Part shown: piece by piece, positions 1 through 28,994 of the stretch | Layout of the letters: each line of letters opens with the position of its first letter | Numbering within the stretch: the stretch's first letter is position 1 | Virus record (IMG/VR): IMGVR_UViG_2554235304_000012 | DNA: 35,661 nucleotides | Origin: a virus | Lineage: Duplodnaviria > Heunggongvirae > Uroviricota > Caudoviricetes | Strand: one strand, 5' to 3' | Made by a program: the position numbers and the translations under genes | Notes under the pieces: model-generated | Databases searched by the model: none | What the model saw: only the letters and a program-made list of their open reading frames with translations | Told to the model about the DNA's origin: nothing

Positions 1-141
1 TTACTGCTTACACTGTAAGAACGCCGCAAACTCCGCTCCCCAGAAGCTCATCCGTATTTCACACAGCGAACCGTGCAACATCCAGATGATGAGGATTGCC
101 GTCACGCAGAACGTGATGGCCGTAAGCGATTTTTGCGACAT
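1..141 (-). CDS. hok: Hok/Gef-family type I toxin, 46 aa (stop codon is window bases 1-3)
   Basis: Own minus-strand translation: MSQKSLTAITFCVTAILIIWMLHGSLCEIRMSFWGAEFAAFLQCKQ. N-terminal TM helix plus SLCEIR...EFAAFL..CK motif closely resembles HokA/Hok as remembered. Not in the ORF track (too short). Confidence 0.6.
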   Translation of the reverse strand: MSQKSLTAITFCVTAILIIWMLHGSLCEIRMSFWGAEFAAFLQCKQ

Positions 142-271
142 AGCACTTGCTCCTTTTCCGGAGAGGCGCTAACCTTTCACTTGTCAAGGTAATGCGGTTA
201 GGGCCTCGGTTAAACAGAGATGTTTTCCGGGGCCTTTCCACATCTGGCCTTCGGGTATTCCCTCCGACCAT
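59..271 (-). CDS. Mok-like overlapping reading frame (70 codons) covering the hok start in another frame
   Basis: Track ORF 59..271 (-) overlaps hok in a different frame and is 70 aa, the size recalled for R1 mok. No independent sequence similarity claimed. Confidence 0.35.
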   Translation of the reverse strand: MVGGNTRRPDVERPRKTSLFNRGPNRITLTSERLAPLRKRSKCYVAKIAYGHHVLRDGNPHHLDVARFAV

Positions 272-331
272 CAGCCGAAAGGCACCCGCGCGTAATCTAT
301 CGCGTTTTTGTTACTCCGGCAATTCTGCCTG

Positions 332-592
332 TTAATTCTGAGGTAAAGGCAAGCTCATCTGATTGTTTCCCCTGTGTGAAGCTGGCAGCTCATGCCACGG
401 GATACCTTCTGAAGAGTGGATGCCGGAGGCGTGTTTCGATGTGAATTTATGGAAAGCTTCCAGTGTTGAGAAGCATACGCCGCATTCCAGGTTGTTACAC
501 TGGTAATACTTTTGCCGCACGGTGTTTGAATCATTTTCCGGACGACTGGTGCGGATACGGGCAGATGCGCCACAAAGCGGACAACGGAACAT
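332..592 (-). CDS. ogr: Ogr-type zinc-finger late transcription activator
   Basis: MFRCPLCGASARIRTSR...YYQCNNLECGVCF matches the P2 Ogr pattern (MFHCPLC...HQCQNVNCSATF) with four Cys. Located at the prophage end opposite int, as in a P2 prophage. Confidence 0.8.
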   Translation of the reverse strand: MFRCPLCGASARIRTSRPENDSNTVRQKYYQCNNLECGVCFSTLEAFHKFTSKHASGIHSSEGIPWHELPASHRGNNQMSLPLPQN

Positions 593-1601: not shown

Positions 1602-2702
1602 TTACTCTGTTTCTGCTATCCATTCCGGGATTTTGGCTTCAAGCTCAAGCTGCGTGGTAAAGCCACTGTTATCAATGGTGTGCTCGGCTTTTGCAATGAT
1701 CCAGTCCTGATTATCAATCTCGCTTTTAAATCCTGTTACCGTGCCATGCATTTCGGGGTAGAGTTCTGCTCGTCCACGTGCCAGCGTGATGGAAAATGAT
1801 GCGGCTCCGCGTTGTAGCTGCTGCCATTTTGCCGCCGCTGCGCGTCTTGCTGCCTGCTCGTTCTGATAAGTTTTGCGTAACACAAACACGTTGCCTTCCG
1901 CACCTTCCATATAGTCACCTTCACGGCTGCTGCTTTTCTCTTTTTTCGGTTTGCGGCGTTTCACGCTGACTTTTTTCTTTTTCCCGTAATTAAGATCAAG
2001 CCAGTAGGCGCGTACACCCGTATACGCCTCGCGGTCAGCAATGCGGAACTGATGGCGATCGCCGCTGCTGCGTGTGATGGCGAACGATGGCAACGGCTGG
2101 CCCAGTGCGTTCACGCGACCGCCTGGCATGATGAATAACAGATTACCGCTTTTTACCGTGGTGATTGCGCCCAGCATTTCCGCCATGCGCGTAAGGAAGG
2201 ACATGTCGCTTTCTTCGGTCTGGTCGGCGTGGTCGATTTCGATATCCATCAGTATTTCGCTGATTTGCGGTTTCAGACCGTACCGATGAGCGATGGCAGA
2301 TACCACGCGCTCAACGGTCACATCATGCCAGGACACCTCACGTTTAACGTTAAATTCATCCCGAAAATCTGCGCTTCTGGCTGAAACAGTCAGCCTGTCC
2401 GGCGGTCCTTCGTGAGCGATTTCATCAACAATGTAAGTGCCTTTTTCTGTCAGCGGTTCTCCTTTCCAGCCAATGAGAACCGTCAGGCGCGCGCCCCGTG
2501 GCGGTAGCTGCAACTGACCATCCGCATCATCCAGCGTGATGGTGAGCTGGTCCGCCTCAAATCCCCGGTTGTCGGTCAGTGACAGGCTCATCAGGCGCTC
2601 TGCCACGCCTGACAGCGTTTTACCCTCCGCGAGAATATCAAAATCCGGCATTTTCACGGGGTCTGTGCCCTGACTGAGCAATTGCATGGTGGTATCGGTC
2701 AT
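1602..2702 (-). CDS. D: Tail protein D (late control gene D family)
   Basis: Track ORF 1602..2834. Product matches the P2 gpD family over its length. Start is ambiguous (ATG at 2702, 2687 or upstream); 2702 chosen. Confidence 0.8.
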   Translation of the reverse strand: MTDTTMQLLSQGTDPVKMPDFDILAEGKTLSGVAERLMSLSLTDNRGFEADQLTITLDDADGQLQLPPRGARLTVLIGWKGEPLTEKGTYIVDEIAHEGPPDRLTVSARSADFRDEFNVKREVSWHDVTVERVVSAIAHRYGLKPQISEILMDIEIDHADQTEESDMSFLTRMAEMLGAITTVKSGNLLFIMPGGRVNALGQPLPSFAITRSSGDRHQFRIADREAYTGVRAYWLDLNYGKKKKVSVKRRKPKKEKSSSREGDYMEGAEGNVFVLRKTYQNEQAARRAAAAKWQQLQRGAASFSITLARGRAELYPEMHGTVTGFKSEIDNQDWIIAKAEHTIDNSGFTTQLELEAKIPEWIAETE

Positions 2703-4611: not shown

Positions 4612-4986
4612 ATGAAAAATATCGATACTGAAACCCGGAATAACACCGTAGCGGATGATGTGACGGCAGGTGAGGATATGGCTGTCGAACGTGGTGTAAA
4701 ACTTTCCCGGCCAATTGAGCGTGGTGCCGAAAAAATCACATATGTGGAGATCACCGGGGCTATTGAGCAGGCGGGATCCCTGCGTGGTCTGTCGCTGTCT
4801 GATGTGCTGAATCTGAAAGCGGATACCATGTTCACGCTGTTGCCTCGCGTGACCTCGCCACAACTGGATGAAGTGATGATTAAAAAAATGTCGTCACGCG
4901 ATTTTATTCAGTTGTGCGCTGTGGCTGTAAATTTTATGAGCGAGCCAGACTCTGGCGCGAAGAGCGTGCAGGAGACGGCAGCGTAA
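4612..4986 (+). CDS. E: Tail assembly chaperone E (zero-frame product)
   Basis: Position between FII and T. AAGGAG Shine-Dalgarno before the ATG at 4612. Contains an A7 slippery run at 4882-4888. Confidence 0.7.
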   Translation: MKNIDTETRNNTVADDVTAGEDMAVERGVKLSRPIERGAEKITYVEITGAIEQAGSLRGLSLSDVLNLKADTMFTLLPRVTSPQLDEVMIKKMSSRDFIQLCAVAVNFMSEPDSGAKSVQETAA

Positions 4987-24056: not shown

Positions 24057-26261
24057 TTACGTGTCGAGAGAAATTTGTGTGCGCAGTTGAATAGGATTCA
24101 GAATTGTATATCGCTGGCGAATAACATTATATAAATCAAAGTCTTTTACCCTTACGCTTATTACCATCGCATATTGCATATCAGGGGCTGAAACTCCCTT
24201 AACATGGCGCGAAGAATCTCGGGCATGATACCGTATATCAAAAACTGGATCGCTTAATAATGTATCAGCACTGAACTTTTTGCTTCTGTGCAAACAAGTT
24301 TCCCACTTATGACCTTCACTCCTACACTCCCTTTCAGTCTTATACTGGCTTTTTTGACCAAAGAAATCATCTGTATCGGTATCGTCAAGGCCGAATCTTG
24401 GGCGGAAAGTTACCTGCATACCGGCCCTTGTATAGTTTACTGAATGTTCAGGATCTACTGGGGTTTGAATGCATAAAGTAGCGGTAAGCTCAAATGCTTC
24501 GTCAAAGGGAACATCAGGGAATGGGATCGGTGCCCTTAAATATTTATTTTTTGCTAATGAACCATAGTAAATTACTGTAGCAGTATCATTTGGACAATCG
24601 ATTAAAACGTTAGGATCCTCACTAAACCGTCCCCAACCGATATGTTCACGCGAATATTTTCTTGATGTTTCAGCATGATGAACAAGCAACGCTTTCAATG
24701 CAATGGTGTTCAATGGAGTTCCTGATAGAGCCGCAACTCCAGCGGCCGTTCTCAATGCTAATGGAGAGGCATAACTGGTTCCTTGAACTCCAACTATAGA
24801 ACCAAGCAGAGGGTTGTAAGTGTAAAAAGGCTCGTCGTCGCTTCCACCAAAAATAACACCATCAGGTTTAACGAATCCGGGGCTTCTGCCTGGCCCAATA
24901 CAGCTATATGGTGCCCGCCCCCATTTTTCACCGCTACGATCAGCAGCACCAATCGCTAGCGCGTTTACCATATCGGAAGGAGGTTGTATTCTCGCTGCAT
25001 CACCGTCCTCATTGCCATCATTCCCAACAGCAACAGTAAGTAATATCCCATGCTTAGCACAGATTTGGTCTAAAACAGCAGTCCATACATGAACCTCATC
25101 ATCACCAATTGGAAGATGAGGACCAATACTTAGATTAGCGAACTTATAGTCACCACTATCAAGAACGGACTGTATTTTCTTAAGGACATCAAATAAATCC
25201 CAATTGCCATTGTCACCTGATGTCGGTGAAAGAACTCTATAATGATCTACATTCATAAACGGTCTTTTAAAAGAAGGTGCATTTTCCTCGACACGTCCGA
25301 ATAAGAAAGTGGATGTCACTTCATTACCGTGCTGCAATAATAATCCGCTTGTTTCTTTGGTGTCTGGATACACGTATTCCGTAACCCAATTACTCAAGTC
25401 AGCTGTCCCCAAGCCACCATCAAAAATGGCAATACGTTCGGATTCAAGAACAGCTTTAGAATTAGGGAGCTCCGGTGTAACTATATTAGATAACTTTCTG
25501 ACAATGTTCGGCTGAGTACACCTGAGAGACGGCATCGGCCGCACAACGCGGATTAATGAAAAATCGAGTGTTTTTTTCATATCTTCAGGTCGCGCGTGTG
25601 CAACGATGAAAGTCAGCCCACCAACTTGGATTCTACTTTTGTAATCAACAGAGACATCATATTGTGCCGCATAGCTAATATAGGCTTTAACGATATCATC
25701 GTCTTCAACCCCAGCATGAAGAACCACTTCAAATTTTATCAAATCACTTTTCGCATGCTCAAAATTGCGTGCTCTCTCTTTTCCTTCAAAAAAGCTAACA
25801 CTTTCAATTTCGATCAAATCCTTTTGTACGCCCTTCGGAGCTGTAGGGGAATTTAAAATTTCCTTAAATCTTATAACGGCATCATCATCACCGCTAACAA
25901 ACAGTTGCGCCGTTACTAAGTCCTTATTCTGATCGCACTGACGTGCCGCTTTCCGTGGGCGAATGATTACCTGACGGCTGCCGACATCCCGTAAACCTGT
26001 CGCTCTAAGCAATCCTTCCGGAAAGTAGCTTTTACCCAAAAACGCTGGGTGTAAAGTTAAATTGAATACACTCTCCCCCCTTGGCTTAGCCGCATCATCC
26101 AAACTGCGAAAGCGTGAGAGTAAAGTATCAATCTCTGGGTTTAAATGCTCCCTTACTTCTTCAAGAGTATAGGGATAGCGCTTACCATCCCTTCCTTTAG
26201 GCAAAGGTTCCTTTTTTGTCAGAACATGACCGTTACCTAAAAGTAAGTTCCTTTCCATCAT
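24057..26261 (-). CDS. Subtilisin-like serine peptidase (S8 family), 734 aa; IetS-like
   Basis: Asp box IAIFDGGLG, oxyanion-hole region VAVGNDGNEDG and Ser box GTSYASPLALRTAAG in S8 order. Start overlaps the upstream ATPase stop by 4 nt. AT-rich by eye. Confidence 0.85.
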   Translation of the reverse strand: MMERNLLLGNGHVLTKKEPLPKGRDGKRYPYTLEEVREHLNPEIDTLLSRFRSLDDAAKPRGESVFNLTLHPAFLGKSYFPEGLLRATGLRDVGSRQVIIRPRKAARQCDQNKDLVTAQLFVSGDDDAVIRFKEILNSPTAPKGVQKDLIEIESVSFFEGKERARNFEHAKSDLIKFEVVLHAGVEDDDIVKAYISYAAQYDVSVDYKSRIQVGGLTFIVAHARPEDMKKTLDFSLIRVVRPMPSLRCTQPNIVRKLSNIVTPELPNSKAVLESERIAIFDGGLGTADLSNWVTEYVYPDTKETSGLLLQHGNEVTSTFLFGRVEENAPSFKRPFMNVDHYRVLSPTSGDNGNWDLFDVLKKIQSVLDSGDYKFANLSIGPHLPIGDDEVHVWTAVLDQICAKHGILLTVAVGNDGNEDGDAARIQPPSDMVNALAIGAADRSGEKWGRAPYSCIGPGRSPGFVKPDGVIFGGSDDEPFYTYNPLLGSIVGVQGTSYASPLALRTAAGVAALSGTPLNTIALKALLVHHAETSRKYSREHIGWGRFSEDPNVLIDCPNDTATVIYYGSLAKNKYLRAPIPFPDVPFDEAFELTATLCIQTPVDPEHSVNYTRAGMQVTFRPRFGLDDTDTDDFFGQKSQYKTERECRSEGHKWETCLHRSKKFSADTLLSDPVFDIRYHARDSSRHVKGVSAPDMQYAMVISVRVKDFDLYNVIRQRYTILNPIQLRTQISLDT

Positions 26262-27340
26262 TTAATCCCCCACTTTTGTAATTTATTCGCGATTGTTGGA
26301 TGTGAAACACCAACTAATTCAGCTATCTTCCTATTTGAAAAACCGTCAAAATGATATTTAATTATATTGAGATCATTATCGCTAAACTCATCCAATGAAA
26401 CCCTCTCCGTAATTACGGCTTCTATTAATGAGCTTTCAAATGGAATATTTCTAAGTACCTCATTCTTTTTGGAGAAATTCAAAATACGGTTAATGATGGC
26501 AAAGGACATGCCATCTAATAATGGTGCAAGTTTTTTAGATAGTTCAGGTTCAATATTATGATTGACTAAATATCTATCTATCAGTTCTACTGATGGCATA
26601 TTAAATTTAAGGATGTGCTCAAATCGACGCCAAACAGCCGGATCTAAGATATCAGGGTGATTAGTCGCAGCAACAAGAAGCGAGGTCGCTGGCCACTCAT
26701 CTATGGTCTGTAGGAGTACAGTAACTAAACGTTTTAATTCTCCAACGTCCCTGTCATCATCACGTCTTTTTGCAACAGCATCAAATTCATCAAGCAAAAG
26801 GACACATGGTTTCTCTTTGGCATAATCCATAACGGATTTAATATTATTACCTGTTTTTCCCAAAAGAGAACTCATTACAGATGAGAGATCCAATGTTAAA
26901 AGAGGTAAATTTAACTTTGCAGCAAGCCAATGTGCGGACATTGTTTTGCCTACGCCTGGCGGGCCAGAAAGTAAAACCGTCTTCACAGGTTCAAGACCAG
27001 CTTTGAACAAAGAAACCGCATTCTCTCTTTCGTTAACAATTGACTCCAGCTTCTTTGAGATATCCGTATTCCATACAGGTTCTTCAACAATTGCGTTGAC
27101 AGATGTTTCCTGCAAAAGGTTTCGTCTGGAGTCTCCATCCACAGGCATAGGAGCCTTACTAGATGCCCCACGTAATACTGTTCCCTCAGCAACTAACGAA
27201 GCCAGCTTAGAAGCTAAAGCCTCATCATTTTTACGGATGTTGTTAATCATCTTTCTGCATAGGAGTGTAAATGCATTTGCGTTGCCTTTGATGCCTTGCT
27301 CGATGAGTTTGAAAAGTTCATCCTCCCTCACGTTTACCAT
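26258..27340 (-). CDS. AAA+ ATPase with C-terminal helix-turn-helix, 360 aa; IetA-like
   Basis: Walker A GPPGVGKT, Walker B VLLLDEFD, sensor/SRH region LLVAATNHPDILDPAVWRRF, and a C-terminal HTH NRKIAELVGVSHPTIANKLQKWGI. Confidence 0.85.
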   Translation of the reverse strand: MVNVREDELFKLIEQGIKGNANAFTLLCRKMINNIRKNDEALASKLASLVAEGTVLRGASSKAPMPVDGDSRRNLLQETSVNAIVEEPVWNTDISKKLESIVNERENAVSLFKAGLEPVKTVLLSGPPGVGKTMSAHWLAAKLNLPLLTLDLSSVMSSLLGKTGNNIKSVMDYAKEKPCVLLLDEFDAVAKRRDDDRDVGELKRLVTVLLQTIDEWPATSLLVAATNHPDILDPAVWRRFEHILKFNMPSVELIDRYLVNHNIEPELSKKLAPLLDGMSFAIINRILNFSKKNEVLRNIPFESSLIEAVITERVSLDEFSDNDLNIIKYHFDGFSNRKIAELVGVSHPTIANKLQKWGIK

Positions 27341-27718: not shown

Positions 27719-28030
27719 TTATTCAGGAAATAACGCCCGGATATTTCCGGCCATCTGACTGGTTATCTGTGCGGTTGATACTGGCTGTGACGCGGGGCGT
27801 TCTGTCTTGGTTTGTGTCACTGATAACACCTCATCATCAGCCCATGCAGCCAGTCGGTAAGCCTCTGCCGGATTCATTTTCAGAAGTGCCAGCCCGGCCA
27901 GAAAAGCCACGCGTTGGCCGCTTTTGCGGGCTTCTGGTGTAAGGCTGTCCAGCCAGGCGCATGCTTCTCCTTCGTTCTTGACGGCGGTGGGCTTCAGATA
28001 GAAACTTATCCGTCTGGTTGGAGTCGTCAT
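27719..28030 (-). CDS. parR: ParR-like centromere-binding adaptor (putative)
   Basis: 103 aa from ATG 28030 with AAGGAG Shine-Dalgarno, immediately downstream of parM as in R1 parMR. N-terminal RISFYL.P ... LDSLTPEARKSGQRVAFLAGLAL weakly resembles R1 ParR (RTIAFKL.P...LDSIPQGERSRLNRAALTAGLAL). Confidence 0.6.
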   Translation of the reverse strand: MTTPTRRISFYLKPTAVKNEGEACAWLDSLTPEARKSGQRVAFLAGLALLKMNPAEAYRLAAWADDEVLSVTQTKTERPASQPVSTAQITSQMAGNIRALFPE

Positions 28031-28034
28031 TGGT

Positions 28035-28994
28035 TTACTCCTTGTCCATTGCGTACAGCCCATTAACCAGAGCAAACTGTGGCACCCCGTCCGCGATGAA
28101 AGTCGCATTAACTCCGCAGGCTTCGCGGATAGCGGGTGCCACAATCTCCGCCCCTCCACCGACAACCATCACCCGCCCGTAACCCGAAAAAACCGCCAGC
28201 GCGCGGATCACGCGTTGTTTCAGTGTTTCCTCCTTTTCACGAATAACTGCCATCAGGCTGGCGTAATGCGCGTCATTGTGGATGTGCTGGCGCAGCCAGG
28301 CTTCATCGTGGCGATGTTCGATAATGGTATTGGCGATGTGGTGACTGGTGCGCATACCGTTGGTGGCCATCACCGACAGCACGGCATCGGCCATCAGAGA
28401 AACGCCTACGTGTGGATCGCAAAACACCTGGCTGATACCTGCCAGTTGCCCCTGAACCTTTGCCACATCCAGCGTGGTTCCGCCCAAATCCACAATCAGC
28501 AGGGATTCAAACGGACTCATGTCAGCCAGTGCTTTAAAGCCAGCCGGAATGGATTCAGGCATAACCCGCACGTTACGGATAGTGAATGCCTCGCCGTTTT
28601 GGTACTCCACCGGGCGCATAACGTTCGCTTTTTTGCGGTTGATGTTGGCCATGTCCGGCTGTGCGTTTGTGTCGAAATACTCGCTCAGTGGCAGGGTGAC
28701 AACCACATCCACCTCCTGTGGCGTGATGCCTGATTTGACCAGCGCATGATGAATGGCAATGACATTCACATCGCTGTACTGGTATTGCGTGTCGGTCGTC
28801 TGGACAAAGCGATCGCTGACCGGATCAAAACCATAGCGCACGCCATCAAGCATGTAGTTCGCGGGCTGCGTGCCACCGAACGGCGCAGACCATTCCGACT
28901 TGAAGCTGTTCGGGCTGATGGCGTTGCGGTGTTCGCCGTTCTCAGTCCATGCCAGCTTGATGTTGGTGGAGCCGTCGTCGATACAAATTTTCAT
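28035..28994 (-). CDS. parM: ParM/StbA actin-like segregation ATPase
   Basis: MKICIDDGSTNIKLAW......ISPNSFK.EW...FG...NY.L.G..Y.FDP.S......T....YSDVNV.A.HHAL..SG....EVD.V.T.PL.E..D.N.QP...NI.RKKAN..R......G..FTI..V.VMPESIPAG...L......SLLI.DLGGTTLD aligns closely with R1 ParM as remembered. Confidence 0.9.
   Translation of the reverse strand: MKICIDDGSTNIKLAWTENGEHRNAISPNSFKSEWSAPFGGTQPANYMLDGVRYGFDPVSDRFVQTTDTQYQYSDVNVIAIHHALVKSGITPQEVDVVVTLPLSEYFDTNAQPDMANINRKKANVMRPVEYQNGEAFTIRNVRVMPESIPAGFKALADMSPFESLLIVDLGGTTLDVAKVQGQLAGISQVFCDPHVGVSLMADAVLSVMATNGMRTSHHIANTIIEHRHDEAWLRQHIHNDAHYASLMAVIREKEETLKQRVIRALAVFSGYGRVMVVGGGAEIVAPAIREACGVNATFIADGVPQFALVNGLYAMDKE

Follow-up and report, generated by a model that had tools for sequence, protein, structure and literature searches.

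The 35,661-nt stretch of Caudoviricetes DNA analyzed here (the window) begins in a small minus-strand open reading frame (ORF) that lies next to the late-gene activator gene ogr. This arrangement raises three questions: whether the ORF belongs to a working hok/sok-type toxin-antitoxin locus, whether that locus is part of the phage or of the host chromosome beside it, and how its toxin would be kept silent. An earlier note on this DNA had proposed a type I toxin locus with a 46-aa Hok, an overlapping 70-codon mok frame, and a Sok-like antisense RNA, and had left undecided whether the locus was phage cargo or host DNA.

The product of the ORF at 1..141 (-), MSQKSLTAITFCVTAILIIWMLHGSLCEIRMSFWGAEFAAFLQCKQ, matched Pfam PF01848 (HOK_GEF) over residues 7–44 with 29.9 bits (cut-off 22) and PHROG 251 with 80.6 bits, and it is annotated in RefSeq as WP_000078916.1. 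Its best named NCBIfam match was HokA of E. coli K-12 (NF007290), with which it shares the pattern WM..SLCE...AAFL.CK and both hard-coded cysteines; however, the score of 34 bits is far under the equivalog cut-off of 89, and the peptide is therefore not HokA and represents a separate subfamily. The Hok signature that had been read in this ORF was thus borne out by Pfam, PHROG, NCBIfam, and RefSeq alike, and the stop codon of hok indeed occupies bases 1–3, where the window starts. A hydrophobic stretch at residues 6–23 corresponds to an N-terminal transmembrane helix. In an alignment of 19 homologues from E. coli, Shigella, Salmonella, and Klebsiella, nearly all of which are exactly 46 aa long, M1, Q3, K4, G24, C27, E28, and the C-terminal AE.AA.LQCK motif were invariant, as was C44; the literature describes the two conserved Hok cysteines, here C27 and C44, as a disulfide pair. 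This alignment also drove the search for related loci. The genome scan with it yielded seven loci, some of them from contaminated assemblies, and an nhmmer search of the window with the subfamily alignment found a single hok copy. The viral scan kept only loci with 100% identical peptides, which biases coding diversity low and leaves leader diversity informative. Across 30 distinct coding sequences, 2361 synonymous and 1197 nonsynonymous single-nucleotide codon differences were counted, and we therefore conclude that the hok frame is under purifying selection.

An identical peptide has been catalogued as entry 72_1621 of cluster 72, a “high-abundance cluster” (Table S2 in Escalera-Maurer et al., bioRxiv 10.1101/2025.08.07.668861), in a study that found hok to be approximately four-fold enriched in prophages. 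A toxicity test of exactly this 46-aa peptide has accordingly been published as a preprint: 72_1621 was cloned as LRP137 for arabinose-induced assays, in which toxicity was observed for 42 of 45 constructs and 72_1621 was not one of the other three, a result that concerns overexpression of the coding sequence and not the native locus. The same preprint deliberately left mok, Sok, and the mRNA structure unanalyzed, and the position of the gene between ogr and attR is absent from it. Judged by its sequence, the 46-aa ORF is a genuine Hok/Gef family toxin gene that has already been annotated and catalogued.

Over bases 1–700, the window matched E. coli O127:H6 E2348/69 (NC_011601.1, reverse strand) and many further E. 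coli chromosomes at 100% identity. The source prophage is a P88-like (P2-family) element of the enteropathogenic strain E2348/69; RefSeq annotates it as a P2-family prophage flanked by btuC and ihfA, and the ends of the window coincide exactly with the stop codons of its “Hok/Gef family protein” (WP_000078916.1) and its integrase. Among phage records, the closest were the P88-like Peduoviridae (Xuanwuvirus) P88, PhiR44_2, Chuche, and P884B11 and the Citrobacter phage Shae_phiSM, which shared 95–97% identity with window bases 1–623. Where these records annotate the hok ORF, they call it “MokW-like host killing”, which is merely the name of PHROG 251. The immediate upstream neighbor of hok is the P2-type late-gene activator ogr (332..592, -; Pfam Ogr_Delta, 52.4 bits), found directly upstream of hok in 79 of approximately 101 related loci. 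Its stop codon (332–334) is separated from the start of the 70-codon ORF by 60 bp (272–331), as the earlier note had stated.

Extension of the sequence leftward resolved the choice between cargo and host DNA. A 25-bp direct repeat, AAAGAAAAAAGGCCGCAGAGCGGCC, occurs once between btuC and the end of the integrase gene and again overlapping the ihfA terminator (locus L003, positions 4637–4661 and 41096–41120). The second copy of this att core lies 262–286 nt beyond the window edge, that is, beyond the hok stop codon, so that hok is located 261 bp inside the boundary of an integrated element of 36,459 bp. When the empty site was rebuilt from the two outer flanks and one copy of the core and looked for in 5426 E. 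coli genomes, it was found uninterrupted at 100% identity, and it was covered to at least 80% in one place in 5120 of the 5426; in prophage-free genomes, btuC, one core, and ihfA are contiguous, and hok is absent. The locus is also present in the genome records of the phages P88, PhiR44_2, Chuche, and Shae_phiSM. The reading of the locus as host DNA beside attR has its position at the window edge in its favor and nothing more; with the core further out, empty sites lacking hok, and isolated phages carrying the locus, the probability of this explanation is negligible. The locus is phage cargo, and the gene order at this end of the prophage is gpD, ogr, hok/sok, attP arm, and attR.

Comparison with related elements places the cassette more exactly. 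Homology between P88 and the E2348/69 prophage ends just past the hok terminator, which makes the cassette the final module that both share ahead of the variable int/att module. A P2-like prophage of Salmonella uses the same ihfA site and has a Hok of 61% identity at the corresponding position, in the order gpD-ogr-hok-ihfA, and further members of the subfamily were found at the edges of other integrated elements. In E. coli, 1757 of 5426 complete genomes matched the 700-nt ogr-hok stretch, 1158 of them covering at least 80% of the query in one place; some complete genomes hold several cluster-72 copies, up to 9. Many prophage predictions in IMG/VR (loci L013–L092) stop exactly at the same hok stop codon as the window; boundaries placed at gene calls in this manner lose the hok 3' untranslated region, with fbi and the terminator, and approximately 290 bp of attP-arm DNA.

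The RNA elements of the locus were located by fold prediction, conservation, and their coordinates relative to plasmid R1. At the gathering score, Rfam gave no match in the whole window, whereas an E-value search recovered RF01794 (“sok”) at 287..128 (-), covering all 157 model positions with 48.4 bits (E-value 2.1e-9; gathering score 59). The RF01794 consensus begins with GGGUGCUUGAg and finishes with AUG, and it matched the hok strand; from the ends of the consensus and the strand we therefore infer that the model describes the sense leader, a reading that agrees with the R1 positions G4, C5, T6, A70–C72, C74, G105, and A106 (PMC9841398). The 5' end of the hok mRNA is predicted at position 287, and its leader extends over 128..287 (-). 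A candidate promoter at 294..322 (-) consists of a -35 element TTGCCG (322–317), a 17-nt spacer, and a -10 element TAGATT (299–294) placed 6 nt before the predicted +1. In relatives from E. coli, Stx phages, Salmonella, and Klebsiella, this -10 element (TAGATT, TAGAAT, or TAAATT) lies at a constant distance from GGGTGCC. The promoter matches 8 of 12 consensus positions and was not called in a promoter scan; that scan returned zero sites, and the assignments of both the hok promoter and the Sok promoter described below rest on conservation and position.

Within the leader we assigned tac at the 5' end of the mRNA (GGGUGCCUU..., 273–287), the ucb/anti-Shine-Dalgarno (SD) element AAAGGCCCC (229–237), GAGG (204–207) as the equivalent of the R1 mok SD, dcb with the sequence GCGCCUC (163–169), and the hok SD GGAG (150..153), 8 nt upstream of the AUG and conserved in the alignments, all on the minus strand. 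The fbi element AAGGCACCC lies on the same strand 57–65 nt beyond window position 1; both it and the hok terminator fall just outside the window, and their sequences were taken from locus L001 in the source genome. The transcript of approximately 404 nt from position 287 to the terminator folded with -177.8 kcal/mol (z = -8.0). In both the minimum free energy and the centroid folds, the first 15 nt of the mRNA pair with the fbi region ...GGUCGAUAAGGCACCC. In the full-length fold, the hok SD is held in a local hairpin, CUCC-GGAAAA-GGAG. The closing helix between tac and fbi was kept in the alifold consensus of 33 distinct full-length relatives, where three pairs change on both sides (CG to and from UA, GC to and from CG, and AU to and from GC), and the hairpin after the hok stop codon likewise covaries in these sequences. 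The point variants of fbi, AAGGCATCC and AAGGTACCC, retain G.U pairs. When the mRNA was cut in silico just past the post-stop hairpin (L001:5966-6287, -), the fold switched: tac paired with ucb, and GAGGC (203–207) paired with the GCCUC of dcb (163–169). The same tac/ucb and SD/dcb rearrangement has been described for R1 (PMC9841398). With the Rfam leader match and the tac, fbi, ucb, and dcb elements added to the Pfam, PHROG, NCBIfam, and RefSeq evidence, the proposal of a hok-type type I toxin locus beside ogr at the prophage end was upheld.

An antisense RNA of approximately 60 nt is predicted on the plus strand at ~183..242, with approximate ends; like the ends of the hok mRNA, these positions come from modeling. 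The predicted RNA has a free 5' tail of approximately 17 nt (183–199), a GC-rich hairpin (200–236), and a short U-rich tail, UUUCC (237–241), and it folded with -24.9 kcal/mol (z = -3.7). All 27 sequence variants compared share the design of a 14–18-nt free tail, a hairpin, and a U-rich tail, with two alternative upper stems among them. Upstream, TTGCTC (147–152) and TAACCT (170–175), separated by 17 nt, occupy what we take to be the place of the R1 Sok promoter, and we designate 147..175 (+) the putative Sok promoter. Its spacing is kept in all relatives, with TATCCT or TTTACT as variants of the -10 element; it is a weak match (6 of 12 consensus positions) and was not called in the promoter scan. 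Among 48 distinct E. coli-type leaders, sequence diversity peaked in the Sok tail and its target (181–200) and in the hairpin loop (211–220), and positions 231–290 were nearly invariant. We considered whether the hypervariability of 181–200 proves diversifying selection and rejected this, since a cis-antisense pair stays complementary under any change and the diversity resembles that of the presumably neutral flanking DNA. The diversity of the tail and loop could reflect orthogonality among alleles or a mere lack of constraint. Tandem hok copies in Salmonella (L100, L101) differ in their Sok tails.

The regulatory architecture proposed in the earlier note differs from this one. Spelled out, it would comprise a 70-codon mok starting at position 271 and translationally coupled to hok, together with a Sok-like RNA of approximately 130 nt terminated at 288–305. 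An ORF of this length does exist at 59..271 (-) and overlaps hok, and mok of R1 is also approximately 70 codons long. However, only E2348-type loci have the frame open, and loci of the P88, Stx-phage, and Salmonella types have it closed; a large part of the leader variants, including many that encode an identical Hok, have the hok-overlapping frame closed at -43, -28, or -16 and lack an ATG, GTG, or TTG in it. Substitutions in the mok frame (680 synonymous versus 3573 nonsynonymous) show no coding constraint, and the 70-aa product had no match in Pfam, NCBIfam, or PHROG. The ATG at 271 lies 16 nt from the predicted 5' end of the mRNA and upstream of the conserved GAGG, unlike the mok start of R1, which lies downstream of GAGG. 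By visual inspection, the frame opened by this ATG reaches a stop after 4 codons in the Stx-phage homologue and after approximately 31 codons, before hok, in P88; the ATG is absent from the Salmonella leaders. No canonical start codon occurs in the window at an R1-like spacing after GAGG, where only AUU (191–193) at 10 nt and UUG (185–187) at 16 nt are found; the natural P88-type allele has TAA at this place. The 70-codon ORF is real as a reading frame, and it is probably fortuitous or vestigial and not a conserved mok.

The proposed terminator fared similarly. A simple terminator scan does detect a hairpin followed by a T-run, GCGCGTAATCTATCGCGT TTTTG, at 288..305 (+), within the 286–312 interval originally suggested. 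The hairpin has only five pairs and a stability of -6.9 kcal/mol alone or -9 kcal/mol in context (z = -1.9). Its 5-bp stem was present in 2 of the 49 sequences compared, the window itself being one of them; the stem is reduced to 3 bp in 29 and missing in 8, and the hairpin is absent in Salmonella. It lies upstream of the predicted 5' end of the hok mRNA, between the -35 and -10 elements of the hok promoter, and we judge it to be a non-functional part of the promoter spacer. Moreover, the conserved terminator-like hairpin at ~200–241, with its U-rich tail, would already end the antisense RNA at ~236–241. Taken with the closed frames, these observations make the coupled mok and the longer antisense RNA highly improbable, and the shorter Sok at ~183..242 is the preferred assignment.

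The loss of mok could be taken to mean that what survives here is a hok remnant in decay, its regulation dead, similar to the chromosomal loci of K-12 and encoding a peptide that is toxic when its expression is forced but whose native expression disappeared with mok. The mok frame is indeed unconstrained and closed in many variants, the Rfam score is below gathering, and the literature indicates that the chromosomal hok loci of K-12 may be inactive. In contrast, across E. coli, Salmonella, and Klebsiella both predicted promoters, tac, ucb, GAGG, dcb, the hok SD, fbi, and the hairpins of Sok and of the mRNA 3' region are all intact and conserved; compensatory changes are present, purifying selection acts on the hok frame, neither an IS element nor a frameshift was seen, and 1757 of 5426 complete E. 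coli genomes carry the locus. We therefore regard decay as unlikely. The family of the peptide, the similarity of the leader, the long-range 5'–3' helix with its covariation, and the boundaries of the prophage come directly from the data, and the locus is very probably a complete type I toxin-antitoxin cassette of the hok/sok type, approximately 440 bp long, that forms the last cargo module by attR.

Because every structural element fits, we adopted the R1 scheme for the functioning of this cassette. By analogy with R1, the weak promoter at 322–294 (-) would give rise to a stable hok mRNA of approximately 400 nt starting near 287, in which pairing of tac with fbi would keep the full-length molecule closed and untranslated. 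Slow trimming from the 3' end to the hairpin just past the stop codon would remove fbi, and tac would then pair with ucb (229–237), so that the GAGG region is freed and the Sok target exposed. Sok would be an unstable antisense RNA of approximately 60 nt, transcribed constitutively on the plus strand (~183–242); it would bind the trimmed mRNA, and the duplex would be destroyed, which in R1 is done by RNase III. If Sok were no longer made, the trimmed mRNA would be translated, and the 46-aa Hok would insert into the inner membrane and kill or arrest the cell. In R1, translation of mok is required for translation of hok; since mok is not conserved here, the step from Sok binding to repression is not transferable from R1. 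A mok-independent switch, in which GAGG captures dcb and thereby frees the hok SD, and which Sok reverses, was also considered. The accessibility of the SD shifted as expected in most variants, with one variant unresponsive; however, its unpaired probability rose only from approximately 0.01 to 0.03–0.10 before falling back, and the switch was unconvincing.

Compared with hok/sok (parB) of plasmid R1, the cassette has in common a Hok-family peptide with a transmembrane helix and two cysteines, a leader recognized by the same Rfam model, the tac/fbi closing helix, the refolding into tac/ucb and SD/dcb helices after 3' truncation, and a cis-antisense RNA, predicted in the present case, of approximately 60 nt in which a single hairpin follows a free 5' tail. 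It differs in the length of the toxin (46 aa versus 52 aa in R1), in lacking a conserved mok start or frame throughout the subfamily, in an Rfam score below gathering, and in its carrier, an integrating phage instead of a plasmid. Another prophage-borne hok/sok, hokW-sokW of the Stx2 prophage Sp5/933W, has been shown to be a toxin-antitoxin system of type I, in which the loss of Sok on induction lets HokW aid lysis and raises phage release two-fold (Takada et al. 2021, PMC8621323). Identity of the present locus with hokW-sokW was considered and rejected, since the cloning primers of that study give a different 51-aa coding sequence, MKQQKAM... (PMC8621323). The Stx-phage relative of the present locus is instead a second, unstudied hok that adjoins lom and shares 83% nucleotide identity with it. 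This second hok of the 46-aa subfamily is located at ~1500–1810 of loci L004/L005 (phages 75/02, VT2-Sakai, and 933W); it is unannotated in several records, and its mok-like frame is closed. A literature search for hok in P2-like phages found nothing specific. The cassette likely serves the phage in at least one of three roles: retention of the prophage, help in lysis as for hokW, or abortive defense.

Several other genes of the prophage were also observed. The region 27719–28994 (-) of the window encodes ParM (Pfam StbA_N, 275 bits; ParM C-terminal domain, 231 bits) and a StbB/ParR-like protein (PF10784, 84 bits), so that both kinds of stability locus known from plasmid R1, partition and post-segregational killing, occur in one integrating P2-like phage. 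The combination of parMR and hok/sok may point to a phase as an episome or to the capture of a plasmid module. A match to the IetA/IetS anti-phage defense pair, an AAA ATPase and an S8 peptidase, was found at 24057–27340 (-) (PADLOC IetA, 298 bits; IetS, 138 bits), downstream of the replication gene and parMR. Between ogr and gpD, positions 624–1591 form a 968-bp insertion relative to P88. The insertion, common to 9 of approximately 101 related loci, carries a 229-aa ORF (742–1431, -) that had no match in Pfam (above threshold), NCBIfam, PHROGs, or PADLOC and may be an unknown cargo or defense gene. RefSeq divides the neighboring gpD into a 792-nt gene and a pseudogene fragment; truncation was rejected, since tblastn shows an uninterrupted 366-aa gpD at 1605–2702 (-) that is 99% identical to gpD of P88, and the tail gene appears intact. 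Past the right end of the window, and still within the prophage between the att core and the integrase gene, lies a 131-aa ORF (L003 4768–5163, -) without a match in Pfam or PADLOC.

As a cassette, the locus is ordinary: it is annotated in RefSeq and in phage records, it is widespread, and its exact peptide has been catalogued and tested. The present analysis settles its status as cargo, gives the exact att core, and corrects the RNA anatomy in the position of Sok and the lack of a conserved mok. The missing mok marks a small but genuine gap, because the reference mechanism cannot do without translation of mok, and the published catalogue left mok and Sok unanalyzed. One possibility, which we put forward tentatively, is that cluster 72 represents a mok-independent form of hok/sok, in which the refolding apparatus was kept and the leader ORF dropped, with Sok acting through decay of the mRNA or through a structural switch at the hok SD, and that it serves as an allele-diversified, att-proximal module for retention or the sensing of excision in P2-like and other prophages. 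If so, the hypervariable Sok tail and target (181–200) could provide mutually orthogonal alleles that allow several prophage copies to coexist, and in the present phage the hok/sok module would stand alongside a ParM/ParR partition system.
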